DNA of 64,000 nt from Diadema setosum (taxonomy: Eukaryota). Position numbers and translations under genes: made by a program. The notes under the pieces are model-generated. The model had not been told where the DNA came from. It did no database searches and worked only from the letters and a program-made list of their open reading frames with translations. The stretch is from NCBI RefSeq assembly GCF_964275005.1, contig NC_092698.1, positions 37,744,597 to 37,808,596 on the forward strand, given 5' to 3'. Positions 24,588 to 63,585 of the stretch are shown piece after piece (position 1 is the first letter of the stretch; each line of letters begins with the position of its first letter).

Positions 24588-24620
<33 letters not shown>

Positions 24621-35928: not shown

Positions 35929-37296
35929 TAAAAGGGGGGGGGGGGGGGCGATGGGGGCGGTCGCCCCGGGCCCTTAAGATTCTGAATAATTCTGAGTGCA
36001 CAAGACTTATCACTTACATTCCGAAAAATCAATAGTTTCCTTATGTACAAGGGGAATATCCCCTTTTAATCAACCCTTTCCTCTCTAAGTTCCCACGATC
36101 ATTTTTTTTTATAATTTCCCAAATATTCCATGAAATACATGTGTATGCGTATACGAGATATCTGAATTTCAGCTTTAAATAGGCTAAAGCTCCCTCGTAC
36201 GGGAATGGTGGGGATAGCACTCTCCCACGCTTTCTCCCTGTTCCCCCCCCCCCCCACCGCCCTGTGCATACAAGGTAGTAGACTATACATACACTTTGAG
36301 TTTTGAAAATAAAACTATATGCCACAAAATGTGTGCACCAAAACGTTTAACTGCAATCAGAAAATACAGAATCTCCTTCATGTAGGAGGGGTAATAGGGC
36401 TTATCCCCTCCCACATCCTCCTGCTATGTCTTCTTCCACAGACTTGCTACACTTCTCTGATTGACAAATTTCCAACAAAAGTGTGAGCCAGATCGTTGAA
36501 TTTCATGCAGTTCTAAAAATGAAAAAGCTCCCTCGAAAATGGGAGACGTATCTTGCCACCATCCCATTAACAAGGTCCACTCTATAGACTTAGTACACTT
36601 TGGGTAATGACAATTTCCGAATTTCCCACAAAAAGTGTGCTTCAGATCGCTTTATTTCAATTCTAACAACGCAAAAGCTCCTCCCCCTCTACCTCATTAG
36701 ACTTTGTACATACACACAGATGATGCACACGCGGAATAAGAACTAAATGCCGTGATATTGCCATACGATTGCTGTTAACACTTTCCTGAAAAAACCTAAT
36801 TTCATTTCCATTATTCTTTTTTTTGGGGGGGGGGGGGGGAGGGGAGCTAGAAAAAATTCCAAGTATTGCACCCAAAGTTTGCACCAGATCGCTGATTTCA
36901 GGTCTGAAAATGTAAAATCACATTCGTGTGGGAGGAGAAATATCCCTTATGTACACCCTCGTGTGCATGCCTTTTCTGTTTGATTGCTTAACAGACAGCG
37001 TTCATGAAATTCATTGTAAGAATTAATAAAAGAAGTTTATTTAAATGGTACCACTTTATAGGCAAATTGTTCTATAATAATCCAAGTGGGCTGTTTCAAG
37101 TCGATAAAACACGCAAAAACATGCATCAAATTGCACCATTTACAACACCAAAAAGCAAAAAGTTCTCACCGTGGGAGGGGGGGGGGACACCCCCTCTCAC
37201 ACCCCCCCCCCCCTCGCTCGCTCCGCTCGCTCGGGCTCGGTCGCTTCGCTCCCTCGCATAGTAACCCCCCAAGATCATATCCTGGTTACGCCGGTG
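35885..37296 (-). mobile_element. Copy A of a non-autonomous TIR element of 1412 bp, related to the 59545-62623 insertion but carrying only one internal 270-bp unit. It is flanked by a degenerate 8-bp TSD (cgttcaag and cgtgtaag).
   Basis: The ends are caccggcgtagc at 35885 and cctggttacgccggtg at 37281-37296; these are mutual reverse complements and match the TIRs of copy B. The internal sequence from 36990 to 37260 is the reverse complement of array unit 1 at 59580-59830. The segments 36880-36960 and 35930-36000 match the reverse complement of 61740-61830 and 62290-62620. Confidence 0.55.
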
Positions 37297-37610
37297 CGTG
37301 TAAGCGGGGGCGGGGGGGGGGGGGGGGGGGCCTTGACCTTGACTTGACACCCCCCGGTCCCGCAGCCCCCCCCCCCCCCTCCTACACTGAAAAACGTTCC
37401 GCGGCCCCTGTCTTGAAAGTGTAACTGTGTGTCCAATGTATCTGAAGTGTTTCATGATTTTAATCATAGTGACTTAATTTTCGCTGTGTGTGGGATGGGG
37501 TTGTTCGTGGTTGTTTGGATCTAGGGTCATTGTTATCTCCCCCCCCCCCCTTCCTTGGCGATAAAAATCTGGGGGCGGGGAAGTTATCTTTTCTTCTTTT
37601 TTCCACGTTT

Positions 37611-38453: not shown

Positions 38454-38858
38454 ATGCCTGCACTAAGAACTGTGATTCTCAGTGTATGCATCGCGCTGAG
38501 CCTAGTTACCAGCACGGATGCAGCCACTGCCGAGAAGATCGGTTCGCCAACTATCACTCTGCCATCTGGAGCAAATCTAACGGGCATCACGAGGCTGTAC
38601 AATGAATCAGACTTCCTCAATCTTACCAAGCCCATCGATTCCTATCTCGGCATCCCTTTCGCCGTGCCTCCAGTGGGCGATCTCCGCTTTGAAGACCCGC
38701 AGCCGTACACGATCATGGAGGACTACGACGCAACAGAACATCGGGCTATATGTCCCCAGATGAGCCCCGTCCGTCACGTACCGGTGGTGGGTCCCAAGGT
38801 GGGACGAGACGTATCAGAGGATTGCCTTTACCTGACCATTTACTCTCCGTCACCAAAG
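38454..38858 (+). CDS. Carboxylesterase type-B/cholinesterase-like gene 1, exon 1 (135 codons). It carries a signal peptide (MPALRTVILSVCIALSLVTSTDA) and the EDCLYLTIY motif.
   Basis: The ATG is at 38454. The donor is aag|gttaga at 38859, in phase 0. The homologous exon of gene 2 is also 405 nt. Confidence 0.85.
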
Positions 38859-39013
38859 GTTAGAAATAGTATTGTGCATCTATCTATGAATCTATGAATC
38901 TTCTTTCTTCAAAGTTACAGTAATTCCATGTGTTCTCTGCACAGGAACACTGCAATGTCGATTTAATCGGATCATAATCATGTAGGCAATTCAAAACATA
39001 AGCGTCATCTTCG

Positions 39014-39014
<1 letters not shown>

Positions 39015-39074
<60 letters not shown>
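39015..39074. repeat. (CA)30 microsatellite in intron 1 of gene 1.
   Basis: Read directly. Confidence 0.95.
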
Positions 39075-39077
<3 letters not shown>

Positions 39078-40097
39078 CTGCAAACTCTGTGTGCGTTGTT
39101 ATCATTGTTGAACATTTTTATAAGTTTCATGATAAAGTAATACCCAAGGAACTTTTTACCCGTTTCTGCACGCTTTCAAATCCCAAATGAAACTCATCTT
39201 TTGATTTGACAAGTTTTGTGACAATGTCTGATGATTCAAACTTTATCACATGCACTATATAAATCGAAGATTAGCTGAGGATTTTTGTACTTCTTGTGTT
39301 TGCAAGAATAGCCTGAAGTAAATCATTTTAAAGCATTTCAGAAACATCACCTTCTTAAGCTATCTTTTGATCGTAACGCCGCGGTGGTACACGGCGTGTT
39401 GCCTGCTGTACAAGTTATTCTATTGATTAATGAATTCTCTTATGTCTCACCAGATGCTTTAATAAAGATAAAAGAACAACAAAAATATAAAAAACAACAA
39501 AAACCCCAACAACAAAAAGCAAAACCCCAAACCAGCAACTCATAGCACAAAAAATACCCATAGACTGATAAACTCGCACATCGAGTTAATCTTCAATCAT
39601 TTTAATCTTTAATCATTTTAATCATAAACTATTTGTATAAACTCTTAAGTAATCTAATGGCTAATCATGTCGAAACATGCATACATGTAATGAAATAGAT
39701 GTATGAAATATTGAACGCAATTCAACGCATTTTTTCTTACTGTCGATTGGAGGATTATTCGTTTCTCCTCAGTTCTGTCATGACCACTCAATAAATCAAT
39801 TCCTCTATCTTTAACATACGTTTTTCTTCCCTTATAAACCTCAACCAATAATTACATTGACTGCGATAAACTGAGCAAAATTAAGTGTGCAGACTCTTAA
39901 AGGTTTACTTAATTCCAAAAAAGCGAAGAATTCTAAGATTTCACATGTGATCAACCACAAGCACTGCCCGAAAAAAAAAAAAGAAAGAGCACGAGTTTGA
40001 CAGCTGTGCGAGATGCGTATGAGTAAGCGTGAGATGTATGTTGGTTGAGTTTAGACTAACAATTTACTTGACGCATCTGTCGTCATCCCATTGATAG

Positions 40098-40260
40098 CCC
40101 ACCACACCCGTACCTGTCATGGTGTGGATCCACGGAGGGGGGTACGCCGTCGGTGCGGGATCGGGGATCATTTACCAACCCATCCCACTCGTCGCCATGT
40201 CCGACATCATCGTCGTCAACCTCAACTACCGACTCGGCGTCTTTGGCTTTCTGACCACAG
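40098..40260 (+). CDS. Gene 1 exon 2 (163 nt), encoding PVMVWIHGGGYAVGAG...NYRLGVFGFLTT(G). This is the oxyanion-hole region.
   Basis: The acceptor is ttgatag|CCC. The exon ends in phase 1 at a probable GC donor (CAG|gcaagc), at the exact position where the paralogue has CAG|gtactt. Confidence 0.75.
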
Positions 40261-40395
40261 GCAAGCACACATTATGCACTACATGGCAAGGGAGTGGAAT
40301 GAAAATGTGTCGATTATTTAGAAATATGATTTCTTGGTGTTGATTCTATTTAAAAAAAAAAAAAATCTCGTACAAAATTAATGTATACAATGATT

Positions 40396-40752
40396 TGGCT
40401 CAGTCGGGAGCTCGTCACGACTCCCAATCTAAATGACCCGGGTTCGATTCCCAAGTCTAATTGGAAAATGTTATAGTTGTGTGTAATCATACCGTACTCT
40501 CTATAGTGAGAGGCAAAACACTCTGTCCCTCGGATAGGACGATAGAATGGAGGTCCCGTAAGTGAAAGAGCCACAACTAATGCAGGTAAAAGATCCCGCT
40601 TCATTCATCCATCGAAAAGAGCAGGGTGCATCACCCGGTGAAGTGGTCCGTCTCACGAACTTGACCCTATGGAAGACAACCTACAGTGCAGCTGAATATG
40701 GACTATCCAGCCATCTTCTCAGATGAAAATGAAACAAACAAACAAACATTTG
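40396..40752 (+). mobile_element. tRNA-derived SINE, family 2, in intron 2 of gene 1. The head is tggctcagtcgg...gggttcgattccc, with a perfect B box, and the tail is (CAAA)n.
   Basis: It has an A-box-like TGGCTCAGTCGG and a B box GGTTCGATTCC, and ends in gaaacaaacaaacaaac. Its 3' end recurs as a reverse-complement copy at 58215-58306. Confidence 0.6.
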
Positions 40753-40852
40753 CCACTGACATGTCAGACGAATACGTAGAACTCTGATAACGATACGACA
40801 TTTGGACACAGTGTTTCTTGTATAGCGTCATATTTGCTTCTTTATCATACAG

Positions 40853-40930
40853 GAGATGACGTTGTGACTGGCAACCAGGGAATGATGGATCAAGTTTTGG
40901 GTCTGAAGTGGGTTCGTGACAATATCGCAG
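40853..40930 (+). CDS. Gene 1 exon 3 (78 nt), encoding GDDVVTGNQGMMDQVLGLKWVRDNIA.
   Basis: The acceptor is catacag|GA and the donor is gcag|gtgagc at 40931. It is phase 1 to phase 1. The paralogue exon is also 78 nt. Confidence 0.85.
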
Positions 40931-41642
40931 GTGAGCGTTTTCAGTGTTGTTCTTGCTCAATATTGGCTCTTTGAAGGAAGTTTAAATCTGTGTTGCTTTA
41001 TAAGGACGAGAAGGTAAAGATTTAAGTGTCTTGTGTTCGACCTACGGCAAGAAGGCCACTTCTTCTAACTCGTCGATGCGCCAGAAAACCTTCGGTCCTG
41101 AATCGGCGTCTTTCGGCTATTAAACCTTCTCGACCTTAACAAGACGCTAAGGTGAAATTCAATACCGAGTACTGTATTCTTCTCATTCCACGTTTAAGAT
41201 TCCGTAATCGGTATTCCTTCAATCTAGGTGGAATAGACCTGAGAGCAACAAATAACTATACATGTATGTTTACAGACCGATAAAGGTATGTCAAGGCACG
41301 CAGAAAGAGGCATGACTTTTTAGGTGTCTCCCTATTCATTCATGTTCATAAAATTTCTCCTCTTTAGCGAGATTTCTCCAACAAATCGTCAATTGAATTC
41401 AAATTAAATTCACTCTCCATTTTTTGTTTCAAATTTTCATTATATTTCTTTATCTTATTTCGTCAACAGCTTTTTTTTTAATGTTTTAAAATAAGAGAAA
41501 AGATAAAGGACCAAAACATTCCAGACGAATTCTTCACGACAAATTACGAACAAAGTTCCATAGAAGGATCATTCAGTCATAAAAGAGAGAGAGAGAGAGA
41601 AAAAAGCCTTCTATCTGGGAGGAAAATTGTGTAACACTGTAA

Positions 41643-41813
<171 letters not shown>

Positions 41814-42248
41814 TGAAAACCACTTGGAATGTAGCCGTTTGGATGCCAGTGACATGGGGTTACAAGCTGTGCAGGGAAGAGAACCTCCCGCGTGAATATT
41901 TGTCATGGTTGGCTTTGAATTCCTCCAGCCTTCCAACAATATCTAAGGAACTCTAGCTGAAACTAAGTACTTCTGAATAGGGACACCATGGTATAGCAAC
42001 AAGCACGTAGTGTAATTTGTATTGTTTTTACATACACCATTCTGATTCGGCAAAGAAATGAGTAAATGAATCAATTATTCACTTCAACTTAGTCACACCA
42101 TCACTGATTATATGTGTGACAATGTAGTTGATACATCTTCTCTTTTCTCTTTTCTCTCAATTGAATGAATGTCAAATAACTTTCTGATAACTTTCGAATC
42201 CATGACATTTTATTTTTCTCCCGACCTGGACCCCCTTCTCCATGGTAG

Positions 42249-42413
42249 AGCGGCAACGCCATTTGTCCATGGGCGTGGTCAACCAATGAGGGCGCCACCG
42301 CAGCACATCGAGAGCTGGCGGTACAGGTGGGGTGCGACCAAACAGACAGTTCGGCAATGGTGGAGTGTCTACGTGGCGTGGATATGGACACTTTGATAAG
42401 AGAGCAGATCTTG
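42249..42413 (+). CDS. Gene 1 exon 5 (165 nt), encoding SGNAICPWAWSTNEGATAAHRELAVQVGCDQTD...REQIL.
   Basis: The acceptor is ccatggtag|AGC and the donor is ttg|gtaaga. It is phase 0 to phase 0. The paralogue exon is also 165 nt. Confidence 0.8.
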
Positions 42414-42835
42414 GTAAGAAATCGCTATGGGAACTAATATACAAATTTATTATGAATTCTAATTTCGCTGTTCCTTCTGTTTTCTGTATACACACTCAGA
42501 TACCTACAAATTACAATACTGTATATAATTAACTACACCACTTCCCTGACTACGCTACGAATGCTCATAGGCATTAGTAAAACGTCAATTACAAACATTC
42601 CTCAAAGGGGCCTCGTCAATGCCACTGCACACACAAATACACACAAATACTCACTAGCAAAACTCTAATACCAACATTGTATGTCTGTACTATACACACT
42701 GCATCTTTCATTCGCTATGTTTATTTTCATAAGTGCTGATGAGATGTGCTTCGGATCGTTTCACTCTCTTTCACCCCCTGCTCCATTTTCTAACTCTTTC
42801 TCTCTCACCCTTTCCCTGTTTTTAATTGTGATCAG

Positions 42836-43449
42836 ATGGGAAACGGTGCCTTGTCAGCCCCGGTGGTAGACGGAGACTTCCTACCCTACAACCCGGTGGA
42901 CATGGCGCGACGAGGTCAGTTCCAGGTGGTTCCAACCCTCATAGGAACGAATGAAGACGAGATGTCCAGTGCTGCTATGGCCGTCTTTCCTGGGTCAATA
43001 CTCGATGACCAACCTCCAGTCATGAACATCTCGCTTTTCCGAAGTCTGATTCCCGGTATGGTGTACTACACTCATGCGCCTATTGAGATCGCAGCCGTGG
43101 AGCAGCACTACGTCGACTGGACGGTGGCAGATGACCTCTCAGCTGACCAACTGGACAGCTACATACGACTTGGTACGGATCAGACATTCTCATGTCCTAC
43201 CGAATTCTTTGCGCGGGCTTTAGAAGCGTATGGCACCGAAATTTACCGCTATGAGATGACGCATGACCCGAACTGGTCCGTCTACGCAGGAATTCCGAAG
43301 TGGTTGGGGGCCACCCACGCCGAGGATCTGCAATACGTCTTCGCTTGGGCGCTAAACCCTTGGCTGGAATTCCTCGTCAACCAGACAAACGATGAAAAGT
43401 TCATGTCGATCGAGTTTATGCGATATTGGTCGAACTTCGTAAAATCCGG
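42836..43449 (+). CDS. Gene 1 exon 6 (614 nt). It carries GTNEDEMS (catalytic Glu) and GATHAEDLQYVF (catalytic His).
   Basis: The acceptor is tgatcag|ATG and the donor is tccgg|gtaagc, in phase 2. It matches ORF 42836..43453. Confidence 0.88.
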
Positions 43450-43574
43450 GTAAGCAATGAATACAGTTCAAAATAAAAACAAACAAACAAGCAAAACAAA
43501 CAAACAAGCAAATCAAACAAAACACGACAATCACCACAACCGTGGTGGAAGTTTTCATTACTCGAGTTAGCAGA

Positions 43575-43735
43575 ATCGGATCGTTATCTCCAAGGTTTAA
43601 TCCGAAAATGAAATGAAGTTCGTTATTCCTAAAATAAAAAAAGGTTCGTTATTTCTAAGGTTTGTTATTCCAAAAGGTCGTTAATCCGAAGATGAAAAAA
43701 GTACTTAATTCCGAAGGTTCGTTAGAATGCATCTT
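43575..43735. repeat. Minisatellite of about 6 units with motif (A)AGGTTCGTTATTCCGAA, period about 25-30 bp, in intron 6 of gene 1. A related array lies at 49700-49850 in intron 1 of gene 2.
   Basis: Motif recurrence read by eye at both sites. Confidence 0.6.
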
Positions 43736-44845
43736 TTTTCTTACTTAACCTTCTTACATTAATGTATACATGCGTACGCCACAGTAAATTGTTCATAAAA
43801 ATGAATACATTAATGAGTAATTGTTCAATCTGTGTCTGTTACTTTTAAATATCTCAAATGACAGAAGTCACTAAAGTCAAAGGTAAATTTAAGTGTTAAA
43901 GGTATAAATCTACCATTTGCAGATGAAGCAAAAACCCAGCTTTAGTGCTTCAAAATAGTTCTGAAATTTGAGTTAGGGATAGAAACAACCAAAGTAAAAA
44001 TTTGAATCAGTATAATTAATGACGTGTTAAAGGTAGGGAATCCCATTTGCATGCCTTAAATGAAGAGTTGTATAAATACAGTAGTATGTTGAAGAGAGTA
44101 TCATTTTAGAAACTCCCATAAAGTATTGAAAGTGGAAGGTAACATTTAGTACATTTTTATTGACCGTTAGATTTTGAATTGAATATTTTTCGGGGCTCAC
44201 CGTAAATTCCAGTACATTACTAGGCTACCTTTGCAGACCCATGCACTGCATGTGTGTCCATCATGTATATTTTGTGAAGAAAGTTCATCAAAACTTACAA
44301 ACATTTCTATATACATTCTTGCCACACACTCTATATGTTATTACATCAGATCTTATACTTTTAGGTTTGTGTTTATAGATAAAAAAATACAGAAGACTGC
44401 AACAAAAAGGCTTAAGTGTGGCTGACACACAGAACTACTGAGTAGTTGAGTTTTGTGCATTATTCAAATTGTAGATAACTGTTGACTTTCAAATTTCTCA
44501 GCAGTGGCCTAAACAAGTCCCCTGAGGTTCATATTTAATGTTTTGCTGCATTTTGGGAGGTCTGTAAAAGGTATCCCCTACCTTTAAGTGTTGTTAAATA
44601 TACAAAATGTGAACAACAGTTATTATTGAAATGTTTCTAGATCAAACCGTCTACAGTTATGGCTTATTGAGAAAAATATATTGATGTCTCCTTATATTTT
44701 AGGCTTTATTGCAAAATTTTCACATGGTAGAATGTTTTGTGATACAACTGACCTACACATATGTATCGAATGTGATATTTCGAACAATTTTAAATCACTG
44801 CCCCCAAAGGTAATCTGTACCTTTAATGCCTTATAATGCAATCAG

Positions 44846-45015
44846 GAACCCCAACGAACCGGCAGAAAACCAAGCCTACCCGGACTGGCCACAGTACACT
44901 TTGCCTGGTCAGGATTACAAGAAACTTTCACTCGACATGGACAACGATCGGGCAATGCGGGCGTCATCATGTGCTTTCTGGCTCAGGTATATGCCGGGGC
45001 TACACACCGAAGCAG
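44846..45015 (+). CDS. Gene 1 exon 7 (170 nt), encoding NPNEPAENQAYPDWPQYTLPGQDYKKLSLDMDNDRAMRASSCAFWLRYMPGLHTEAG.
   Basis: The acceptor is caatcag|G and the donor is gcag|gtatag. It is phase 2 to phase 1. Confidence 0.85.
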
Positions 45016-45353
45016 GTATAGGATACGTCTTTCGTCAACACCCCTTCACTGTCTCAGAATGATGCCAATAGCACCCTAGACTGTGTCCAAGATACTTGAT
45101 CATTATGACACTTGTGATATTTGGAAGTATGAGATGCCTGCAATCTTGCCATCTATCTAAGATTGCTTAAAATGTTTAATTGTTTCGTCTCATCTATGCA
45201 CTGAACTACTATAATTGAGACTAAATCTATCCACAAATTAATATCTCGTGAAATCTTCCGATACAATTGTGCGGCTGAACATTATGATTTGTTCTGAGAT
45301 GTTCAACTGCCCTTATAAACCTATTCATGTTCATATGGACATTTTTATTTCAG

Positions 45354-45487
45354 CTCCAATTGAGGACGTGTACGAGCAATGGCAGGAGGACTATGCGAAC
45401 TGGCGTGACATAGACATGCCTAGCTGGTCTACAGAGTTCGAGGAATACAAGGCTAACAACCCTACTTGTCCCACAGCAACGCCGTGA
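45354..45487 (+). CDS. Gene 1 exon 8 (terminal), encoding APIEDVYEQWQEDYANWRDIDMPSWSTEFEEYKANNPTCPTATP followed by a stop. This is a Trp-heptad plus Cys tail (T-peptide/WAT-like).
   Basis: The acceptor is ttatttcag|CT. The TGA stop is at 45485-45487. The total CDS is 1848 nt, or 615 aa. Confidence 0.8.
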
Positions 45488-49231: not shown

Positions 49232-49636
49232 ATGCCTTCACTAAGAATTTGGATTCTCAGCGCTTGCGCTGCCCTGAGTCTAATTACTGGCACGGAGGCA
49301 GCTTCCGCCGAACCGATTGGCGCGCCAACTGTCGCCCTCCCATCTGGAGCAACACTAACGGGCATCACGAGGCTGTACAATGAATCTGGCTTCCTCAATC
49401 TTAACAAGCCCATCGACTCCTATCTCGGCATCCCTTTCGCCTGGCCTCCAGTAGGCGATCGCCGGTTTAAAGACCCAGAGGAATACACGATCACGGAGCA
49501 CTACAACGCAACAGAACATCAGGGCATATGTCCTCAGACGAGCCCCTTGGATGGTCTCCTCAATGGCAGTTTCGAGATCGGCAGGGATGTCGACGAGGAC
49601 TGCTTATATCTCAGTGTCTACACTCCGTCACCAAAG
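49232..49636 (+). CDS. Esterase gene 2 exon 1 (135 codons). It has a signal peptide (MPSLRIWILSACAALSLITGTEA) and is about 70% identical to gene 1 exon 1.
   Basis: The ATG is at 49232 and the donor is aag|gtagga at 49637. Confidence 0.8.
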
Positions 49637-50749
49637 GTAGGAAATCTACTGCGTAGATATCGCAACAATTTATTCATAATAAAGAAGTTGTAATGTAATT
49701 GGTTTGGTTACAGATCGTTATTCTGAAGGTTCGTCATTCCGAAGGTCTGTTAATCCGAAAATAAAAGAAGGTTATAACTGTTATTCAGAAGGCCCGCTTA
49801 TCCGTAAACGAAATAAGATCGTAATCTCTAAGGTTCGTTAGATGTCGTCTTTGCATTTTCGAACCAACAGACCTTATTTGATTTTCATTGATTTGAGAAT
49901 ACAAGCGTTCCACACTGTGGATCTTTTCATTACGTTACAAAAACCACCTCCCTGCAAAACCTGAAGCAGAAATATTCCTCTGATGCGTGTCTTAATTGGT
50001 GGTGAAAAAGTCATCTCTTCTTTCATAGTCGGATTTATCATTATGCACCATGCTGTTTATTTCATGGTCGACTTTATATGTGATTTATATATACATGGTA
50101 ATATTTGATATTAAACAAGCGAATATTATCGCATGCACATTATATTATGCAGACAACACGGTATATTTTTTTTTTCATAAATTGGTCCAACCTATATCTT
50201 GAAAGAGTTTACGAAGGACTGTGTTTTAGCAAACTGATATTGATCTGAAGAGGACAACGAGATTTTTGATTTGCTCAGTTTTTTGTTAGCAAAGTGGAAA
50301 CTACCTTTTGTATTAAGTTATGTGAAAAAACAGTCAAACATAAAGAGACTGTCAATTACATGGGAGTTACGCTTGATCAACAGTTGAAGTGGTAATGTTC
50401 GCGTCAATGCTATACTTTGGTCGATTCTTTGCACTGAAAGCAAAATACTGTTCAGTTTTTACTGTGCAAACCAAATTAGTCGATTCCAAATTATATTTAA
50501 TTCGAATGATATAATGAGCATCTGTAGTTTGTATTCGGGTGAATTTCATTAACACAAAAAATCTAACGTTTTGATTACGGGAATGGGACAATATGGGGGC
50601 ATGTTAGAAAATCTTTGCTCACTATTGTAATGTTTTTTCCTTAGAGGTTCGGAGATCGTTCTACTCATATTGAAATTAATGTTTTATAATAGTTGTGCCA
50701 TTTTTCATTAATTTCTGTGACTGGACCACTCGGCAGATCTGCTGTTTCA

Positions 50750-50998
50750 TTGTGTCTTTTATGTTTTGCGTCTATTGGTATTATGTTGTATTTATATCTG
50801 GTTGAATTTGTATTACCTTATTATACCATATGAAACAACAGAGCAAGATCTGTGCATAATTCATAAACAAAATTAGAAATACGACTGGATTGACGTCAAT
50901 CCAGTCGTATTTTTAATTTTGTTTATGAATTATGCACAAATTTAACCAGATACAAATACAACATAATACCAATAGACGCAAAAATATAAAAGACACAA
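50750..50998. repeat. Long, near-perfect palindrome (hairpin) centred on TGACGTCA at 50891-50898. The arms are about 104 and 145 bp, and the left arm has a 41-bp insert. It lies in intron 1 of gene 2.
   Basis: The left arm (gtgtcttttatgttttgcgtctattggtattatg...cgactggattgac) is the reverse complement of the right arm (gtcaatccagtcg...cataataccaatagacgcaaaaatataaaagacac). Confidence 0.7.
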
Positions 50999-51440
50999 CA
51001 TTTTGCCTTCCGTCCTGGCAGATTTATATATTGGAAAAATATGATTTGTGTATACATATACACTTGTATAAATAATATTTGATTTTGAGGGGGAAATGAA
51101 GATGTCTAACAGCTAAAAGCGATTTCTTAAATACGTTGTGATCCAATCCCTATAATACCTCTACGACTGTTACTTATTGAATTATGATTTTGATTCAAAA
51201 CTGCCGAAAAATTCAGAAATAGCTCATTGTTTAGTTGATTTACTTCTGTCCTCTGATTACAATTGTACTCAATGGATAACTGAGCAAGCATAACGTTATG
51301 AATACCTAATCAAATATTTATGTACACTGTATTTTAATAAGTGTGCGTGTGTAAGAGTAGGAGTGAGGGATGGGTGTATAGACATAACATTAACACGCAA
51401 AAGTTGGGAAAATGATATGATATTTCGTTTGTCATTTCAG

Positions 51441-51603
51441 CCAACTTCTCTCTTACCAGTCATGGTGTGGATTCACGGGGGTGGTTACAATGGTGGTGCA
51501 GGGTCGGCACCTTGGTATCAGCCCATGGTACTGGTGGCGTACTCCGATATTGTTGTTGTGAACCTCAATTACCGCCTTGGTGTCTTTGGGTTCTTGACTA
51601 CAG
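51441..51603 (+). CDS. Gene 2 exon 2 (163 nt), encoding PTSLLPVMVWIHGGGYNGGAGS...LGVFGFLTT(G).
   Basis: The acceptor is gtcatttcag|CC and the donor is acag|gtactt. The length and phase are the same as in gene 1. Confidence 0.82.
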
Positions 51604-52025
51604 GTACTTTATGTTCTATGTTGACGTCACATATAACAATAAATCATTTTATTCATGGTTATAGAACACTTACCTACCGCTGAGGGCTCAAGGCCATGTT
51701 TCACTAACATGGGAACTATGGAGTCGAACAATGAACCCAAAGTTGGGACAGGTTCAGATCAGATCCATATTGTTGGGAAGGATGCATAGACATTCAAGAT
51801 GTATTCTAGTGTGTGGTGTAAGGTGTGCGCAAGACTAACTTCTGAGGACTGCTTTATCCCAAAAAAGTCCCTAGGATCAGCTGAATTAAACTTAAGATTG
51901 GTTTTTAGAGCGAAGTGAAACAACCCCTGGTCTTAAGAGGGCATTGTCATTGATATCATTACCAAACCATTACGTTGATTTCAACATCTTGATTCAAAAA
52001 GACAAACAGAGAAAAAACAGAAACG

Positions 52026-53700
52026 ATGTACAAGGACAAGCGGGAGGATAGAACCCACGTTCTCTTGTTTAGTTCACAGTCTAGTCTTATATGTGGAAAA
52101 TCTAATGAAGTTTTTGATTATGTACAAAACGAAATTAGAGAAAAAATGCAGAACATCGACCGATTACTGGTCCGCCCGGAGTTCAAAGTTTCCATATATG
52201 TCCGGTATCTGTTACCTGCCATGAGATTTATGATGAGTGTCCATACACTGAATAAATCACATCTTGATGTATTAGACTCTATGACAGACGGCTACCTAAA
52301 ACAGTGGTTAGGAATCCCAAGTCGAGGGGGAAACATTGCAACCGTACATCTCCCGCAAGGGATGGCCATCCCGCGCTTTTCCGATATTTATTAGAAAGCC
52401 AATTGTTCAGCTTATACCAGATCAAGACTAGCTGGTGACGGCGTAGTTAACCACGCCCTAGACTCCACGCTGGAACGCGAGTCGAGGTGGACAACAAAGC
52501 AGTCCACTGTAACCGTCTGTCACAGTGTCCATGAGAAAGCCGTAAGTGAGCTTAGAGTACAGACCAATAGCTCCTGGAAGAAGACAATAAACAAAATACT
52601 AGAGGATGATGTTGTAAACTACTGGAAAGAAAAGATAGAGCCACTCCTTTGCCAAGGAAAATTTACAGAACTATTACTGCTCGAGAGAGAAAACCTCACA
52701 TGGAAATCCATTATGTTTAATCTCCCTCGAAATGTTTTAAAGTTTGCAGTTAACGCGTGTATTGATTCCCTACCCTCTTATTCAAACCTATCCCGTTGGG
52801 GAAAGAGACTAAGCAATAAGTGCTCCTTCTGTCCAAATACAACAGGGACCCTATACCACATTCTGTCACACTGTCCATCGATGTTAGAAAGGTATACTTG
52901 GCGACACAATAATGTTCTTAAGGTTATCCAGACCATTATAATTAGCACAGAATTTAAGAATTTCGATGTTTATTGTGACGTAGGGGGCCACAGGAGGCAC
53001 AGTATACCCCCGCACATCCTGGTAACTAACCAACGCCCAGATCTTGTTGTCGTATGGCACAATCCCAAACAGATTATGTTAGTAGAGTTAACAGTTCCTT
53101 CTGAGAGCAACATAAAAGACGCTCACAAAAGGAAGATAGAGAGGTACAAAGACCTGGTTCGAGATCTGAATGAAACCGATTACGACACCTCATTTGAAGC
53201 GATTGAGGTCGGACAAAGGGGATTCATTGATGCTGAAAACAAAACTCGAATAAAGCAAATCCTCGCCAAGTGTAATTGTAACAAGAAACCAAAGGAGCTG
53301 TACAATGACCTCAGCAAGGCTGCACTTCTAGCTTCTTTTGTCATATTTTACAGCAGACACGAACAAACATGGTCTGATGCACCGTATATGTCGGTATAAT
53401 CAGGTTTTGTATACAGTACCAAATCCCAATTCAATATGTTATCAGGATTAACATATTGCTGATATTATGGTATTGTTGAAAATGTTATGTGATAATATAT
53501 TGTATAGACAGGTAAATTATTTGAAGCTGAATTGTATGTTTGATGTATTGAAACGTTTTCTGACTGTGTGATATTATTATTTTTGGCAACATTAGTAGTA
53601 TTTGCACACACCTATGATGTTGGAAAGTCAAATCCGTCCAACACATGGTCAAATTCAAAAGTTGTATTGATACATAAATCTGGTGATTTAAGTTTGTTTG
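52026..53700 (+). mobile_element. 5'-truncated, decayed 3' portion of a non-LTR retrotransposon ORF2 in intron 2 of gene 2. It contains an RT-thumb-like region, a CCHC zinc finger and a PD-(D/E)XK restriction-like endonuclease domain, pointing to the R2/NeSL/CRE/HERO group. A 3' UTR follows.
   Basis: ORFs 52026..52394 and 52713..53399 share one frame and are separated by stop codons. The thumb-like region reads IYVRYLLPAMRFMMSVHTLNKSHLDVLDSMTDGYLKQWLGIPSRGGN. The zinc finger reads KCSFCPNTTGTLYHILSHCPSMLERYTWRHNNV. The endonuclease region reads RPDLVVVW...IMLVELTVPSESNIKDAHKRKIERY, giving the PD...E..K pattern. A roughly 110-bp duplicate of the 52085-52205 segment lies at 54320-54430. Confidence 0.6.
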
Positions 53701-55051
53701 AAATTTTTTTTTGATCGATTTCCCTCACATTTTGTATAAGTGAGATATTTCATTAAATTTTGGCAGATGAAATTATTCTGTGATGTGAAATGTATCTCAT
53801 TGCCTTTTTTTTTTCTTTGCTACAATTTACCCAGTTGCTTAGTAGATTCAGGGCACCCTCCTGGTAGATTACATCAATTGATTGTAGAGCATGCTTCAGA
53901 GATGTGTGTCAGGCCCTTTGTGGGAACATTTTTTTTTTTTTTTTTTTAGGCGACCATCCATCCCCAGTATATTACTTTATTGTTTTAACCCTCTCCTGGA
54001 ATATATATATATTTTTTTCAATGTAAACATGGTTATGACCTCAACGGACAAAATATTATTAATACCCTTTATGCAGACGATTAAACGTCATTACCAAAGT
54101 AAACAAAAAGTATATATAGATACACATTTCATCAGAATTCAACTCTCACTCTCAGTTCATGGGTTTATCTCTATAGTATGCAAAATGTTAAAGTTTGTTG
54201 ATTAGTATAGTATATGTGTAATATTTTATATTTGTATATGTGATATGGAATTAGATATACCGAAAGAAGGCTCATTACAATGTTTAGGACCACGGATATA
54301 TATTTTTTTTTTCAATGGGAAAGTAATGGAGTCTTCGATTTTATACAAAACGAAATCAGAAAATAAAAAAGCAGAACATTGACTGATTATTGGTCCGCCC
54401 GGAGTGTGAAGTTTCTATAAACGTCCGACATATATATATATATTTTAAAGAATTGTTATAAATGTTATAATGATTGTTGGTGTTAAATATTATTGTTGAT
54501 ACTGGCACATTAATCTCATGGATGTTATTTGTATTGTGCACTGTTCAATGTGTACCTGCAATTATCTAAAGAGATAATTGACCTGGTTATGTATAAACAT
54601 TTTTTTGAATAAAGAAATGATTCAATCAAAAAATACCAGTGATGCTAATTGTAGGAACATTCATTCTTACATTTCAATCTGATCAAATAAGTTTATAGAT
54701 GATAAATTTGTGTTCGTAAGGGTCTAATGCTTCTCTCTGAGTGACAGCGCCATCATGCTCCCGTTTATCATTGCAAATGCTATGACATTATTGTCTTCAT
54801 CATTGCGAGATCTCTGGTGATATTGACGAAAGCATTTTAGATCATGGTAAAGAACACTATTTGACAGTAAGTATTGTACGTTAATCATTCAATATTTTTT
54901 AGTTTACCAGCTGTACGACTTCTCCATTTTGTTCATGTGTGTAGATGCAACTTTAGAGTACTCGTAGAATGTATTTTAATGTAGGAAATAGTAATGATCG
55001 GAAGTAATTGAGTTCTCAGCACTATTATATGGCTGGTGGTATATCCAACAG

Positions 55052-55129
55052 GTGATGACGTCATGGCGGGGAACCAAGGAATGATGGACCAAGTGATGGG
55101 ATTGAAATGGGTTCAGGAAAACATCGAAG
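55052..55129 (+). CDS. Gene 2 exon 3 (78 nt), encoding GDDVMAGNQGMMDQVMGLKWVQENIE.
   Basis: The acceptor is caacag|GT and the donor is gaag|gtgatg. Confidence 0.82.
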
Positions 55130-55272
55130 GTGATGAGAACGACTATTCTTAATTTCTTAAAGGGATCATACAGTTTCGGTTGAGACCTAATTTCGGGTTT
55201 CTAACATTTTTGGTGAAATAATGAGAAACCTCTAATGAAATATGAAAGAGCATGTAATTCTATGAGGAATTC

Positions 55273-55418
55273 AACATTTATTTGATGAAAATTGGTTTTG
55301 AAATGGCTGAGATATCAAAAAAAAAAAAAGAGTGATTCTAATAAAGTGTGGGACCCACACTTTATTACGATTGCTTTGTTTTATTTTGTTTTTGGATGTT
55401 TCAGTCATTCCAAACCCG
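55273..55418. mobile_element. Small MITE-like element with about 28-bp TIRs (GATGAAAATTGGTTTTGAAATGGCTGAGAT at one end, gtttcagtcattccaaacccgattttcatc at the other), an internal poly-A and the palindrome tgtgggacccacac. A related solo end with flank is present at 19095-19210.
   Basis: The inverted repeat and the shared flank aaataaac(t/g)ttgaat...cttaaaat were seen at both loci. Boundaries are uncertain. Confidence 0.35.
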
Positions 55419-56172
55419 ATTTTCATCAAATAAACTTTGAATTCCTCTTAAAATGGTATGCTCTGTACTATATCATAAGTGTTTCTTTTTTTTTTTTTTG
55501 GTATCTCGCAAAAAGTTTAAAGCCCAATTCTCATCTCCACCAATAATGTACTATCCCTTTAATTTCCTAGCTTATTTTCCTCCCTGTTGGCTTAAAGGAA
55601 CTATCGAAATATAAATGAATGTTGACTTATGTTGGTTCATGATACGCTCAACATCAATTATGACGACTGTGACCAAATGAATATCTAAATTCGTGTCATA
55701 TATTTCATAATGATATTATACTATATATTTCTTCACAATGATATATGGCACATATTTCGATATTCTTTCGATTAGATGTTATAATTCAATACAAATCAAC
55801 ATGGATTTGCATTGTGTGGTCTGAAATAAAACGACTCTTTATTATATTGAATTTGATTTTATATGCTTATTGCTTCTATTAGCATTCAAAAATTCATCTT
55901 CAGGTACATCACTCATAATTATCATAGTTTTCTTCCGTGGTCACCCTGGCATTTTTAATCAATATTGATCCCCTTGCCATTATTGAATTTGATATCTTCG
56001 AGAAAATTAAAATTCAACTAAAAATTGAGTGGAATGATGGCATTGGCTCGATGATTGTAAAAAAATCTGACAGTTTAAATCATTCGATGATATCTTGGCT
56101 GTTCATTTTCCGTATTCACCGATGATCTTTCATGTTCATGTCCCGAATTTACGTATAACATGTGTAATATGA

Positions 56173-56523
<351 letters not shown>

Positions 56524-56710
56524 TAAAATCAAATCCCAACCTAAAAAGCATCTGTTCCTATATCACACTGAGGACTATTACTGCAATCTATATTGTTCGG
56601 AACAATTGAATTCTTTATCTCGTATGTTTTTTGTTGTTATTTGTTATTTGCCATTTTTTTTTTTCTGTTGCCATGTGTGAACATGCGTATATATCTCTCT
56701 TTTTCATTTT

Positions 56711-57553
56711 TATACCCCCGCCAAACGAAGTTTGAAGGGGGTATATGGGAATCAGCGGACGGTCGGGCGGTCGGTCGGGCGGTCGGTCGGTCGGGCGGTC
56801 GGTCCGTTGCAAATCTTGCGTCGCGAACTACTTCCTCAGTTTTCAACCGATTCCCATAAAACTTGGCACAGATGTGTGCCTTGGGTTGTAGATGTGCAAG
56901 ACGTATTTTTTGACAGTACCCAAAAGTACGTTGCCATGGTAACGGCATATTATGGGCAAAAATGGGTACAAATCTTGCGTCGCGAACTCCTCCCACAGTT
57001 TTTGATCAATTTTTATGAAATTAGGTGCAGATGTTCATCTGAATATGTTAATGTGCAAGACACATATTTCCGCAGTGGCAAAAAGTGCGTTGCCATGGTA
57101 ACGGCATGTTATTGGCAAAATATAGGGCAAAATGCTTCATGGCAAAACTGCTTCATCAGTGTTCTTCCAATTCTCATGGAATTCATATTGAATGTTTGTC
57201 TTAGGATATAGGTCAGCATGACACATTTCTTGACAGTTACAAAAAGTATGTTGCCATGGTAACACGCTCACATATTATGAGCCAAAATGATGGAAAATTT
57301 TGCGTTGCAAACTACTTCCTCAGTTTTTGCCCAATTTCCATGAAACTTGGTACAGATGTGTGCCTTTGGTTGTAGATGTGCAAGACGCATTTTTCGACAG
57401 TGCCCGAAAGTACGTTGCCATGGTAACGGCATATTAATGGCAGAAGATCAAGGAAAGATCTTGCGGATTTAACTACTTCCTCAGTTTTTTGACCAAAGCT
57501 TATGAAATGTTGTTTTGACCAAAGCTTATGAAATGTTGTTTGGCGGGGGTATA
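56711..57553. mobile_element. Non-autonomous TIR element in intron 4 of gene 2. It has 16-bp TIRs (TATACCCCCGCCAAAC and GTTGGCGGGGGTATA), a (GGGCGGTCGGTC)n tract, and about 4.5 internal tandem units of roughly 160 bp.
   Basis: TIRs read at 56711-56726 and 57538-57553. The unit ...gttgccatggtaacggcat... recurs near 56930, 57095, 57255 and 57415. ORFs 56732..57211(+) and 56637..56996(-) are repeat artefacts. A (T)28 tract follows at 57573-57600. Confidence 0.6.
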
Positions 57554-57987
57554 ACCAGTCGCTGTAGCGACATTTCTAGTTTTTTTTTTTTTTTTTTTTT
57601 TTTGAAGGGCCATGAACACCGAAAGGTGGACCTGTGCGCTATAATAGCCACTATTATTATTATCATTTTTTTAGAGGTACGCAAGTTCAGCGAGGGTAAG
57701 AGAAACAGCTCAGATATGAAAGGTCGAGATTGAGAGTTACTCAGGGAGGTGGGAACCCCCTCCCTGCTCAGTCGCTTATACATGTTTCAAATTTACAAAT
57801 GTATGCGAATGTAGACTTCGTAGGGGTAGTCTCTTTTTACAAATATGATGTGGGTTATGAGGCAGGGTGGCGATAATTTTGAAGGAGATCTCTAAGAAAG
57901 ACTACTACCAGATTGACCAGATTTAACTGTTACCATGTATGACCTTTACCTTGATTCCCTGTTTTTATTAAACCCTCTACTCCCCAG

Positions 57988-58152
57988 AGCGGGAACGCGA
58001 TCTGTCCCTGGGCGTGGACAACAAACAGCCGGGCAACCGAAGCGCACCGTCAGTTGGCCGAACGAGTGGGCTGCAACCAAACAGACAGTGCAGCAAGGGT
58101 GAACTGTTTGCGGAACGTGGAAATGAATGACCTGATATTGGAGCAGTTTAGA
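57988..58152 (+). CDS. Gene 2 exon 5 (165 nt), encoding SGNAICPWAWTTNSRATEAHRQLAERVGCNQTD...LEQFR.
   Basis: The acceptor is ctccccag|AGC and the donor is aga|gtaaga. Confidence 0.8.
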
Positions 58153-58214
58153 GTAAGAAGGCGGCTAGCGGTATATAACTACAGATCCAATTTATTTCCT
58201 TGAGTAATGGTGAC

Positions 58215-58306
58215 TTGTGATCGCAGAGGAAAACTTTGTTTTGTCTTGTTTTATTTGTTCATTTTCCATCTGAGAAGATGGCTGGATAGCCCATATTCAG
58301 CTACGT
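58215..58306 (-). mobile_element. 5'-truncated fragment (3' end plus tail) of the family-2 SINE, in intron 5 of gene 2.
   Basis: The reverse complement matches 40688-40752 (agctgaatatggactatccagccatcttctcagatg plus a CAAA-rich tail). Confidence 0.4.
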
Positions 58307-58702
58307 TAAGCTGGCCTTTATTTAGTGAAACAGTCTAATTTTGCTACATGAAGTATCACCTAGATAATGAGAGATCAATGATATTTTGACATTTACGTTC
58401 TTAGTTACTCTTGCACTTGAGCCTTTGTTGAGAATATATCCTTCCAATAAATTGTTCTTGGTTTGGAAGCCGCTTTTTGTACATTTCTGTCACGGTAGAA
58501 CACTCCTTGCCTACCCGGATTATAGTAGGCCTAATAACAGTGCAATAACATCATTCACTGCGACTGAAGGTGGACAAAGAAATCTTCCAATTGATACATG
58601 TGCAGATACTCTGAGGCTACTGTCGGTCAATGTGACATCAAAAAAAAAAATCTCAATTTATTTGAAGTATACCACAGGAAATGTTTCTCTTTCTATCATT
58701 AG

Positions 58703-59316
58703 ATGGGTGATGGCGCTTTGTCGGCTCCCGTGGTAGATGGCGACTTTTTGCCCAACAATCCGGTTGATATGGTTAGACGCGGCCAGTTCCAAGTGGTTCC
58801 TACTTTGCATGGTACAAATGAGGATGAAATGTCCAGTGTCGCCCTCTACATCTTCCCAAGCTCCATTCGAGACGACGATCCTCCAGTTATGAACATCTCT
58901 GTCTTCAGACAATGGCTTCCTGATGTTCTACCCTTTACCGACACGCCGATTGAGATCTCCTCCGTAGAACAGCATTACATCGACTGGACCGTCGCCGACG
59001 ACGAGTCAGCCGACCAACTCGACGGATTCATTCGCCTAGCAACGGACCAGACGTTCGCCTGTTCTACAGAGTTCTTTGCGAGGGCTCTTGAAGCGGCTGG
59101 CGCCACAACGTACCGTTATGAGATGACCCATGACCCCTCCTGGTCTATCTATGGAGGGATTCCAAAGTGGCTCGGTGCAGCACATGCCGAAGATCTGCAG
59201 TATGTCTTCGCCTGGGGACTCAACCCTTACATTGACATTCTCGTGGGGCAGACTGACGAAGAACGACTCATGTCGATCGAGTTCATGCGATACTGGACCA
59301 ACTTCGTGAAATCCGG
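58703..59316 (+). CDS. Gene 2 exon 6 (614 nt). It carries GTNEDEMS and GAAHAEDLQYVF.
   Basis: The acceptor is tcattag|ATG and the donor is tccgg|gtacgc. It matches ORF 58703..59362. Confidence 0.85.
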
Positions 59317-59544
59317 GTACGCAAGAGTATTTCCTTGTTTTGTATTGTTTAAAAATATTTAATTGGCTCACTCAGCTCATTGACGGAAATACCTATAAAT
59401 AATAACAGTTGAAATATCACTTAAAGAGGAAATTACATCTAACTCGACTTCTTATACATTGTACTCTTGAATCAATCAGGAACCCCAACGAACCGGTAGA
59501 AAACCCAGCCTACCCGGATTGGCCACAGTACACCATGCCCGAAC

Positions 59545-62500: not shown

Positions 62501-62623
62501 AAGGAGACCCGCTTCATGTGCATGCATACAGTATACACGCATTTTTTTTCCCGCCTCCCAACTCCTCGGTCCAAATCTTAGGGGGGGCGACCGCCCCCAT
62601 CGCCCCCCCCTGGCTACGCCAGT
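59545..62623 (+). mobile_element. Copy B of a non-autonomous TIR element of 3079 bp, inserted in exon 7 of gene 2. The TIRs are CAACGGCGTAGCCAGG and, in reverse complement, (C)ACTGGCGTAGCCAGG. The TSD is 7-8 bp, (g)cccgaac. An internal tandem array occupies most of the interior.
   Basis: The left junction is atgcccgaac|caacggcgtagccagg and the right junction is cctggctacgccagt(g)|cccgaacagg. Removing the element plus one TSD restores the exon exactly. No transposase ORF is present. The 61700-62620 portion carries gggaggggg..ccccctccc palindromic motifs shared with 35.9-37.3 kb. Confidence 0.72.
59576..61700 (+). repeat. Tandem array of about 8 units (period 249-289 bp, one unit truncated to 186 bp) inside the element. 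Each unit contains gagcgagcggagcgagcgaggggg...gggagggggg(t)tcccccctcccacggtgagaactttttacattttgattttgcaaatggtgcaatttgatgcatg.
   Basis: Unit starts (motif actgaatatcatgaacgcgactgaaccc) are at 59867, 60116, 60390, 60576, 60848, 61124, 61398 and 61687. ORFs 59582..61584(-) are repeat artefacts. Confidence 0.85.
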
Positions 62624-62949
62624 GCCCGAACAGGAGTATAAGAAACTGTCACTCGACATGGATAATGGCCGAGCAATGAGGGCGTCTTCATGTACTTTCT
62701 GGATAAGATTCATGCCTGGGCTTCATATTCAGGCTGGTAAGAAGCAACATGAGAATGTACCATTCTGCGCCATATCTGTGTGCAATCAGAAATATCTATG
62801 AATCTCCTTCTTGGAGAATTGTTCTGTTTTCCAACGAGAAGAAAGCAGTGGTAATAATACCAAAGGCTCTCCACAATGTACATTGTGATAATTGTGTGGT
62901 GATGTGATGCACATTGGGCCCTGCAAGTGGTATATCGTGCTTTCACGAT

Positions 62950-63300
62950 GACTTTATCAATGTTAGATGAAATAGATAATAATAATAATAATGATAATAA
63001 TATTGATAATAATAATAATAACAATGACAATAATAACAATAATATCAAATAACGACAATTATAATAAGGTTTTCTTTAACCAGGGCCTTTTCAGTGTTGC
63101 CACTGCTCTTATACCAAAGGGCCCTGACATTGTGTTACCCTAGCGTTGCCAAAGTAGCAATTTGTACACCTGAATCAAGAGGTACATGTGGTGTGGGTAA
63201 AAACATCTTGTCTAAGAGGACGTACGAACTCGGTGAGAATCAAACTCGGGTCCTCAGATTGGGATATGAGAGTCTTATCCACTATGCCACGTCGCGCCTC
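62950..63300 (-). mobile_element. tRNA-derived SINE, family 1, in intron 7 of gene 2. The head is gaggcgcgacgtggcatagtggataagactc...gacccgagtttgattctc, and it carries an (ATT)n-rich tail.
   Basis: The reverse complement of 63220-63300 shows an A box (TGGCATAGTGG) and a B-box-like motif. The body and tail align with 22823-23075. The tail, at 62950-63040 on the plus strand, is (ata/att)n. Confidence 0.6.
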
Positions 63301-63451
63301 AACATTTTCTTGACAATGTAAATATTGAATTTTCGACGTTCTGTTATAGGCAGACTACAGGCAGACGTGATGCACAATTCAAAAATCAAGTACAAGATGT
63401 CTTCTGTTTATTCATTTTCTCTAATACCTCATTATTTTGTTCCTTCATCAG

Positions 63452-63585
63452 CTCCAATTGAGGACGTGTACAAGCTATGGCAGGAGGACTATGCGAACTG
63501 GCGTGACATAGACATGCCCAGCTGGTCTACAGAGTTCGAGGAATACAAGGCTAACAACCCTACTTGTCCCACAGCTATGCCGTGA
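63452..63585 (+). CDS. Gene 2 exon 8 (terminal), encoding APIEDVYKLWQEDYANWRDIDMPSWSTEFEEYKANNPTCPTAMP followed by a stop.
   Basis: The acceptor is cttcatcag|CT. The TGA stop is at 63583-63585. The exon is 98% identical at the protein level to the gene 1 tail. Confidence 0.8.

Follow-up and report, generated by a model that had tools for sequence, protein, structure and literature searches.

In a window of 64,000 nucleotides from the sea urchin Diadema setosum (contig NC_092698.1, positions 37,744,597 to 37,808,596, forward strand), two esterase genes in tandem, here termed gene 1 and gene 2, both end in a small coding exon of their own. The comparison of sequences, profiles and gene structures leaves us almost certain that this eighth exon encodes a homologue, albeit a diverged one, of the cholinesterase T peptide, also known as the tryptophan amphiphilic tetramerisation (WAT) peptide. 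The enzymes that carry the tail are probably catalytically competent, non-cholinergic esterases, on which the inherited tail would serve oligomerisation.

The terminal exon and the cholinesterase T peptide

44846-45015, + strand: exon 7 of gene 1, end of the catalytic domain with the last conserved Cys (CAFW...), GT donor
45016-45353, + strand: intron 7 of gene 1, 338 nucleotides, phase 1, GT...AG
45354-45487, + strand: exon 8 of gene 1, T-peptide-like (WAT-like) tail, 44 residues and a stop codon
63452-63585, + strand: exon 8 of gene 2, second copy of the tail (...KLWQ...TAMP and stop)

Exon 7 of gene 1 terminates with ...GLHTEA and the single base G of a split Ala codon (G/CT), which is completed by exon 8 behind a pyrimidine tract and cag. 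In phase 1, exon 8 encodes APIEDVYEQWQEDYANWRDIDMPSWSTEFEEYKANNPTCPTATP, followed by the stop codon TGA at positions 45485-45487; the codons for its first Trp and for its Cys lie at positions 45380-45382 and 45467-45469, respectively. The tail begins at the residue aligned with D544 of human acetylcholinesterase (AChE), 15 residues past the last conserved Cys, and the exon 7 segment CAFWLRYMPGLHTEA is aligned to C529-T543 of the same protein. An initial annotation of this DNA, made from the letters alone, had assigned the tail to a separate last exon in both paralogues, with a Cys six residues from the end. All of this holds: the exon is the eighth of a gene model that is identical at every residue to RefSeq XP_072174372.1 ('acetylcholinesterase-like [Diadema setosum]'), the second copy is located at positions 63452-63585, and the Cys is indeed the sixth residue from the C-terminal end. 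The three Trp had been described as roughly seven residues apart. They are W10, W17 and W25 of the exon peptide, spaced by 7 and then by 8 residues, and hence not equally.

When the isolated tail was compared with Pfam, the top match was PF08674 (AChE_tetra) with 13.9 bits and an E value of 0.046 over profile positions 1-33 of 35, which is below the gathering score of 25 bits for this family. Moreover, PF08674 was not matched when the whole 615-residue protein was scanned. The initial annotation had proposed this profile search and had named the lack of a significant hit to the tetramerisation domain as a reason to abandon the assignment, and this is formally what a single sequence returned. 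Likewise, when the tail was compared by BLASTP with the T peptide of human AChE, the E value was 0.21 and the register was wrong. Results of this kind, a non-significant pairwise comparison and a sub-threshold profile score, are also what would be expected if the resemblance were convergent or due to chance, that is, if the tail were an unrelated Trp-rich acidic C-terminal helix, the more so as short helices of biased composition can yield spurious profile matches. However, the non-significant pairwise result indicates that the comparison of single sequences is insufficient here, and the failure of the single sequence to match PF08674 is overridden by the evidence obtained at the level of the family. 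This profile evidence is also far stronger than the statistic provided by the Trp residues themselves, as the pattern W-x6-W-x6/7-W occurs in 0.4% of shuffles of the tail.

The same ending pattern was observed in nearly all echinoderm homologues that were retrieved (sea urchins, starfish, brittle stars and feather stars), and each of the five echinoderm classes has T-type tails. In an alignment of 29 echinoderm tails, to which three vertebrate T peptides were added for comparison, W10, W17, W24/25 and Y31/32 are invariant and F28/29 is nearly so. Residues Y14, M22, F29, Y32 and C39 of the exon peptide are aligned with F14, M21, F28, Y31 and the near-terminal Cys of vertebrates, respectively, the latter being the Cys that links vertebrate chains. 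PF08674 was matched at E <=1 by 25 of the 29 echinoderm tails, with a best E value of 1.4e-7. Alignment of the echinoderm tails with the three vertebrate T peptides by hhalign resulted in a probability of 96.9% and an E value of 1.9e-10 over 41 columns, with a score of 44.6. As 200 column shuffles scored 8.8 +/- 2.1 with a maximum of 17.7, composition is not the cause of this match.

Among the chains of the PDB, the last 59 residues matched only T-bearing AChE and butyrylcholinesterase (BChE) chains at E <1, and with the full-length query the T-bearing chains scored about 19 bits above truncated versions. In addition, a profile built exclusively from echinoderm tails was searched against 1.84e9 proteins at a library-wide threshold of E 1e-3 or less. 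This search returned 77 matches, all of them at or near the C-terminus. Of these, 20 were looked up. They are cholinesterase-like proteins from echinoderms of each of the five classes, the BChE of human and of bird, an AChE-1-like isoform from abalone and three sequences without a name; two further matches are the T-exon open reading frames (ORFs) of mammalian ACHE and BCHE. All named matches (18/18) are cholinesterase-like, human BChE among them. The tails of human and bird BChE and of mammalian AChE were retrieved at library-wide E values of 1.5e-4 to 7.4e-4. A word-indexed protein search with the tail profile gave 39 short candidates, mostly vertebrate T exons as stand-alone ORFs; these say nothing on taxonomy but supplied the genomic DNA with which the introns were compared. 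Public metagenome and run assemblies contain many such PF08674 'proteins' of 47-82 residues (P0122-P0153, loci L001-L003). Each is a T exon of vertebrate ACHE or BCHE with an ORF that extends back into the preceding intron, presumably stemming from host DNA in the samples.

The intron in front of the tail is shared as well. With a slash marking the splice site, the acceptor of Diadema gene 1 reads ...atttcag/CT CCA ATT GAG..., that of mammalian ACHE ...ggccgcag/AC ACG CTG GAC... and that of mammalian BCHE ...ttttacag/GA AGT ATT GAT.... The vertebrate acceptors were deduced by combining the sequence with the known first residue of the WAT domain, which has been defined as residues 544-583 (PMC2212707). 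All three exons are entered in phase 1 with exactly 26 nucleotides from the exon start to the first TGG, and the same phase and the same distance were found in gene 2 and in the Diadema paralogue P0030, which is 38% identical. Furthermore, the last Cys of the catalytic domain precedes the first Trp by 24 residues in Diadema and abalone as well as in human BChE and in human and Torpedo AChE. Intron 7 itself is 83% identical to that of the D. antillarum orthologue, where the acceptor AG is kept. The initial annotation had pointed out that the vertebrate tail is likewise encoded by a distinct 3' exon, and the likeness extends to the very codon and phase of the mammalian ACHE and BCHE T exons. On the evidence of these sequences, exon 8 descends from the same terminal exon as the vertebrate ACHE and BCHE T exons. 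Combes et al. (2000, as cited in PMC3045457) are reported to have already noted that cholinesterase genes of different phyla share a splice site at this place, where the catalytic domain ends.

Taken together, the column shuffles, which stayed at or below 17.7, a library search that matched only at or near C-termini with every named protein being cholinesterase-like, and an intron identical in position, phase and distance to the catalytic Cys effectively refute convergence, to which we attach a negligible probability. What the initial annotation had called T-peptide-like is thus almost surely a homologue, as judged by hhalign, the library-wide profile search and the shared exon and intron position.

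The initial annotation had also considered that the exon might be used alternatively, as in vertebrates. Nothing points to this: when intron 7 and the 3.7 kb downstream were scanned with a crude filter for phase, hydrophobicity and pyrimidine tract, no candidate for an H-type exon emerged. Since the two species D. setosum and D. antillarum share about 91% identity across the whole region, conservation gives no contrast by which alternative exons could be spotted. In some ACHE genes the T exon alternates with other 3' exons (H, R), and BCHE has a T exon only (PMC3045457).

Active site and presumed role of the tail

The protein encoded by gene 1 matches the Pfam family COesterase (PF00135), the second profile proposed by the initial annotation, with an E value of 2.9e-137, and the solved structures closest to the Diadema proteins are without exception those of AChE or BChE. 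The motifs of the catalytic triad, GESAGG, GTNEDEMS and GA(T/A)HAEDL, had been reported as intact, and all three are found in both paralogues. The assignment of active-site residues was made by pairwise alignment to human AChE, relative to which S203, E334, H447, the oxyanion hole (G120-122 and A204) and three Cys pairs are kept. The aromatic gorge comprises 14 residues in AChE and 8 in BChE (PMC3045457, Table 1). In the Diadema enzymes 3/14 are kept (W117, Y133 and W236 in human numbering), the losses being Y72M, Y124A, W286 deleted, F295L, F297 deleted, Y337S, F338A, Y341A, W439I and Y449E. Moreover, aromatic residues are wholly absent from the omega loop PQMSPVRHVPVVGPKVGRDVSED, a finding that does not depend on the alignment, and W86-N-P is aligned to a gap, so that the Trp corresponding to W84 of Torpedo and W86 of human AChE is missing.

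As the triad is kept but the gorge and the choline-binding Trp are missing, the name cholinesterase is unsupported. Judged by these residues, the Diadema enzymes are probably active serine esterases and probably not true cholinesterases; the aromatic choline-binding gorge, as far as the alignment goes, was lost from them or had never been present. The initial annotation had placed them with cholinesterase-like enzymes rather than with generic carboxylesterases, a placement that fails at the active site, and labels such as 'acetylcholinesterase-like' claim more than the active site supports. Among the T-tailed echinoderm 'cholinesterase-like' paralogues (P0003-P0054) almost none contains the omega-loop Trp, and the gene that supplies the acetylcholinesterase activity of echinoderms is not obvious in this set. 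At the N-terminus of the gene 1 product, AlphaFold2 predicts a hydrophobic helix of residues 2-16 with a low predicted local distance difference test score (pLDDT); the segment looks like a signal peptide, which suggests that the enzyme is secreted.

Given a diverged T/WAT tail on a catalytically competent non-cholinergic esterase, we consider a role in oligomerisation probable. After folding of the enzyme in the secretory pathway, the tail would fold as a helix with an aromatic face, and the helices from several subunits would associate, probably round a proline-rich peptide, an arrangement known from the AChE and BChE of vertebrates. A disulfide bond of the near-terminal Cys could then lock pairs of subunits, or a subunit and its partner, and in this way the tail would set the oligomeric state, the anchoring and the lifetime of the enzyme. 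The packing of T-peptide helices round a proline-rich peptide, with inter-chain disulfides, has been described (PMC5943944, PMC2212707). As generic polyproline peptides suffice for the formation of BChE tetramers (PMC5943944), a dedicated ColQ or PRiMA protein would not be strictly required. For tetramerisation of the PRAD type, which is proposed by analogy with the vertebrate enzymes, we see an even chance.

Several findings weigh against an inherited tail that serves oligomerisation. Besides the single-sequence results given above, namely the Pfam score below the gathering score, the lack of a match from the whole protein and the non-significant BLASTP comparison, they include the 7+8 spacing, the Pro inside the helix and the geometry: on a straight alpha-helix, the aromatic stripe is displaced by 100 degrees at the extra residue. 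For the Diadema tail the hydrophobic moment amounts to 0.11 vs 0.33 for human AChE. Furthermore, gene 2 is interrupted by a transposon in this assembly, as described below, and neither ColQ nor PRiMA is known to us to have an echinoderm orthologue.

The main rival explanation, which we regard as unlikely, accepts the homology and holds that the tail is no longer a PRAD-type tetramerisation domain and has another T-peptide role or a different partner. T peptides are also known to form disulfide-linked dimers, to mediate amphiphilic association with membrane or matrix, and to control retention in the endoplasmic reticulum (ER) and degradation. A different use would agree with the 7+8 spacing, caused by one extra residue between the second Trp and the conserved Met, which together with the adjacent Pro (DMPSW) breaks the single aromatic face. 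It would likewise agree with the absence of the Cys from many starfish paralogues and with catalytic domains that lack the cholinergic gorge, so that synaptic anchoring is not obviously needed; in addition, no dedicated PRAD protein is known to us outside vertebrates. However, the positions that contact polyproline in vertebrates (the three Trp, F/Y14, M21, F28 and Y31) are kept across the whole echinoderm family, and AlphaFold2, supplied with an alignment of 35 sequences, still gives a single continuous helix of residues 574-606 (pLDDT 70-76; mean of 88.3 for the whole gene 1 protein). Moreover, the 7+8 spacing is present in most echinoderm tails, in the abalone AChE-1-like isoform X3 (P0220) and in the tails P0214 and P0195, and hence represents a common form of the domain, not decay. 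A 7+7 spacing was observed in some echinoid paralogues (P0027, P0034, P0044 and P0046). As 7+8 is this widespread, 'three equally spaced Trp' looks like a description of the vertebrate peptides and not like a family-wide rule, and 7+7 in vertebrates could have been derived from 7+8.

The tandem pair and the insertion in gene 2

38454-45487, + strand: gene 1 (paralogue 1), eight coding exons, assembled in frame, 615-residue product
38454-38858, 40098-40260, 40853-40930, 41665-41783, + strand: exons 1-4 of gene 1
42249-42413, 42836-43449, 44846-45015, 45354-45487, + strand: exons 5-8 of gene 1
49232-63585, + strand: gene 2 (paralogue 2), same eight-exon layout, 615 codons, corresponding to RefSeq XP_072174373.1 (P0002)
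49232-49636, 51441-51603, 55052-55129, 56252-56370, + strand: exons 1-4 of gene 2
57988-58152, 58703-59316, 59480-62736 (interrupted by the insertion), 63452-63585, + strand: exons 5-8 of gene 2
59545-62623, no strand assigned: non-autonomous repeat element of 3,079 bp inside exon 7 of gene 2

Both exon models were assembled by hand, in frame, as a tandem on the + strand, and both genes, the junction of exons 7 and 8 included, are already contained in the public annotation. Their products are 76% identical. The paralogous copies of exon 8 differ at 5 of 134 nucleotides (96.3% identity) and share 41 of 44 residues, while the other exons are 69-81% identical, save exon 4 with 91.6%. The initial annotation had given 98% for the last exon against about 70% for the N-terminus; the value of 98% was wrong. 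The sequences that flank exon 8, in the intron as well as on the 3' side, do not align between the paralogues. The synonymous divergence (dS) between the paralogues is 0.09 in exon 8 vs 1.14 in exons 1-7 (P = 4e-7). Between D. antillarum and D. setosum, the gene 1 copy of exon 8 differs at 4 of 134 nucleotides, which is close to the number found between the paralogues, and for exon 6 the paralogues are 72.5% identical vs 95.3% for the orthologues.

Two explanations had been offered initially, strong constraint or gene conversion, and these data speak for the latter. Since synonymous sites in exon 8 are conserved, constraint at the level of the protein cannot explain the identity of the paralogues, and the orthologues diverge at a normal rate; strong purifying selection is thereby ruled out. 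By these sequence comparisons, the two copies of exon 8 coalesce near the species split, which is the signature of gene conversion. Conversion is limited to exon 8 because only the exon is still homologous, and the pair thus provides a clean small case of mosaic concerted evolution in old tandem paralogues. Exon 4 (41665-41783 and 56252-56370), which encodes the nucleophilic Ser in GESAGG, shows a dS of 0.18 at 91.6% nucleotide identity, and its neighbouring exons are saturated; this exon may be a second patch of gene conversion.

The repeat element in exon 7 of gene 2 is flanked by a target-site duplication of 8 bp, GCCCGAAC, at positions 59537-59544 and 62624-62631. It has inverted ends (...GGCGTAGCCAGG / CCTGGCTACGCC...) and no long ORF, and its internal units of about 180-290 bp each contain a 27-nucleotide palindrome. 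Excision of the insertion in silico leaves an exon 7 of 170 nucleotides, and the insertion is not present in the gene 2 orthologue of D. antillarum. The RefSeq model of gene 2 keeps the frame by splicing round the insertion, which results in MPEPTYKK instead of MPEQEYKK; the junction, GC...AG, was inferred from the protein. A GC-rich repeat (translation RERSDRARASGASEGG...) was observed at about 37150-37300 on the - strand, upstream of gene 1, as well as at 59600-59950 on the + strand, inside the insertion, so that this family of elements is represented at least twice in the window.

In view of this insertion, it has to be asked whether exon 8 is part of a functional product or whether it belongs to an artefactual gene model or a pseudogene, with the tail kept through recent gene conversion. 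A frame in gene 2 that is rescued solely by a non-canonical junction would be in accord with this explanation, as would an apparent frameshift in exon 6 of the D. antillarum gene 2 orthologue. However, the frame of gene 1 is intact over 615 codons with AG acceptors throughout, the ratio of nonsynonymous to synonymous divergence (dN/dS) between the paralogues is about 0.15, the D. antillarum orthologue matches the gene 1 protein with 96% identity, and RefSeq arrived independently at the same model as ours. We therefore rank a gene-model artefact or pseudogene as quite improbable.

In D. antillarum, the gene 2 orthologue lies downstream of the gene 1 orthologue (L004, positions 20496-26785) and is far more compact. 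Its apparent frameshift is situated at about L004 26271-26280, and no annotated product of this gene was found among the matches of the homologue search; it may be a pseudogene or the result of an assembly error. The D. antillarum protein P0155 (XP_071492970.1, 1218 residues, 'uncharacterized protein') falls into the same 90% cluster as gene 1 and has double the usual length, and may represent a fused model of two tandem esterase genes. The sole non-GT donor in gene 1 is the GC of intron 2 (position 40261), the equivalent donor in gene 2 (position 51604) being GT.

Relation to known systems

Neither the domain nor its exon nor the conserved splice site is new, and some sea-urchin paralogues already bear an automatic PF08674 label. 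This study adds the placement of a family member that scores below the threshold and the nucleotide-exact match of the intron between sea urchin and mammals. It further adds the occurrence of the tail on gorge-less enzymes across the echinoderm radiation, the finding that 7+8 spacing is common outside vertebrates, and gene conversion limited to an exon. A search of a limited body of literature revealed no account of echinoderm T peptides or of nematode T-type tails, and the echinoderm tails may have been published before. The Pfam model misses the Diadema tail and many other echinoderm tails.

As the T exon with the position and phase of its intron is common to sea urchins and vertebrates, and as related tails are found in molluscs, the origin of the tail would lie well before vertebrate synapses. 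The persistence of the tail on enzymes without a gorge furthermore indicates that the tail can be separated from cholinergic function. These results leave the current view of cholinesterase evolution in place. It is conceivable, if rather doubtful, that the T/WAT tail is no accessory of cholinesterases but an ancient bilaterian oligomerisation exon that was kept on non-cholinergic secreted esterases of echinoderms (dozens of paralogues from all five classes, almost none with the choline-binding Trp), with 7+8 as the ancestral spacing and the vertebrate 7+7 brought about by a deletion of one residue. If this were true, echinoderms would need an unrecognised proline-rich partner or an assembly that is independent of PRAD.

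The closest counterpart is the T peptide of vertebrate AChE-T and BChE (WAT, PF08674), the structure of the WAT/PRAD complex being that of PDB entry 1VZJ. Like the Diadema tail, it follows directly on the catalytic domain at the C-terminus and is encoded by its own last exon. Both have the three Trp, F/Y14, Met21, F28 and Y31 as well as a Cys close to the C-terminal end, and a helix is predicted in Diadema. In contrast to the 7+7 spacing of the vertebrate peptide, the Diadema tail has its extra residue between the second Trp and the Met. It also contains a Pro inside the helix, is more acidic, and taken alone is sub-threshold for Pfam. The Cys is the sixth residue from the end in Diadema and the fourth in vertebrates, and is followed in Diadema by a short Pro/Thr extension. 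Finally, unlike the vertebrate peptide, the Diadema tail is attached to an enzyme without a choline-binding gorge.

Other echinoderm cholinesterase-like paralogues (Lytechinus variegatus P0028 and Diadema P0030, P0044 and P0046) share the fold, the eight-exon structure, the intron position and the tail family with genes 1 and 2, and P0028 carries a precomputed PF08674 match. The echinoid paralogues with 7+7 spacing (P0027, P0034, P0044 and P0046) differ from genes 1 and 2 in this respect, and several echinoid paralogues score above the Pfam level. Genes 1 and 2 and their relatives in Lytechinus and Strongylocentrotus have the DMPSW motif and an ending of the type C-P-T-x-x-P.

Outside echinoderms, the abalone AChE-1-like isoform X3 resembles the Diadema proteins in its 7+8 spacing and in the distance from the catalytic Cys. 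The nematode ACE-1 reportedly also bears a cholinesterase tail of the T type, according to Combes et al. in 2000. These invertebrate T-type enzymes (abalone, nematode) are taken as true acetylcholinesterases, whereas the Diadema proteins lack the aromatic residues of the gorge. With regard to the catalytic domain, the vertebrate carboxylesterases (CES), which are 31-35% identical to gene 1, share with the Diadema enzymes the COesterase fold, the triad and an open, non-aromatic active site. However, they end in an ER-retention motif of the HXEL type (...HAEL, ...HTEL, ...KEL), where the Diadema enzymes end in a T-type tail.

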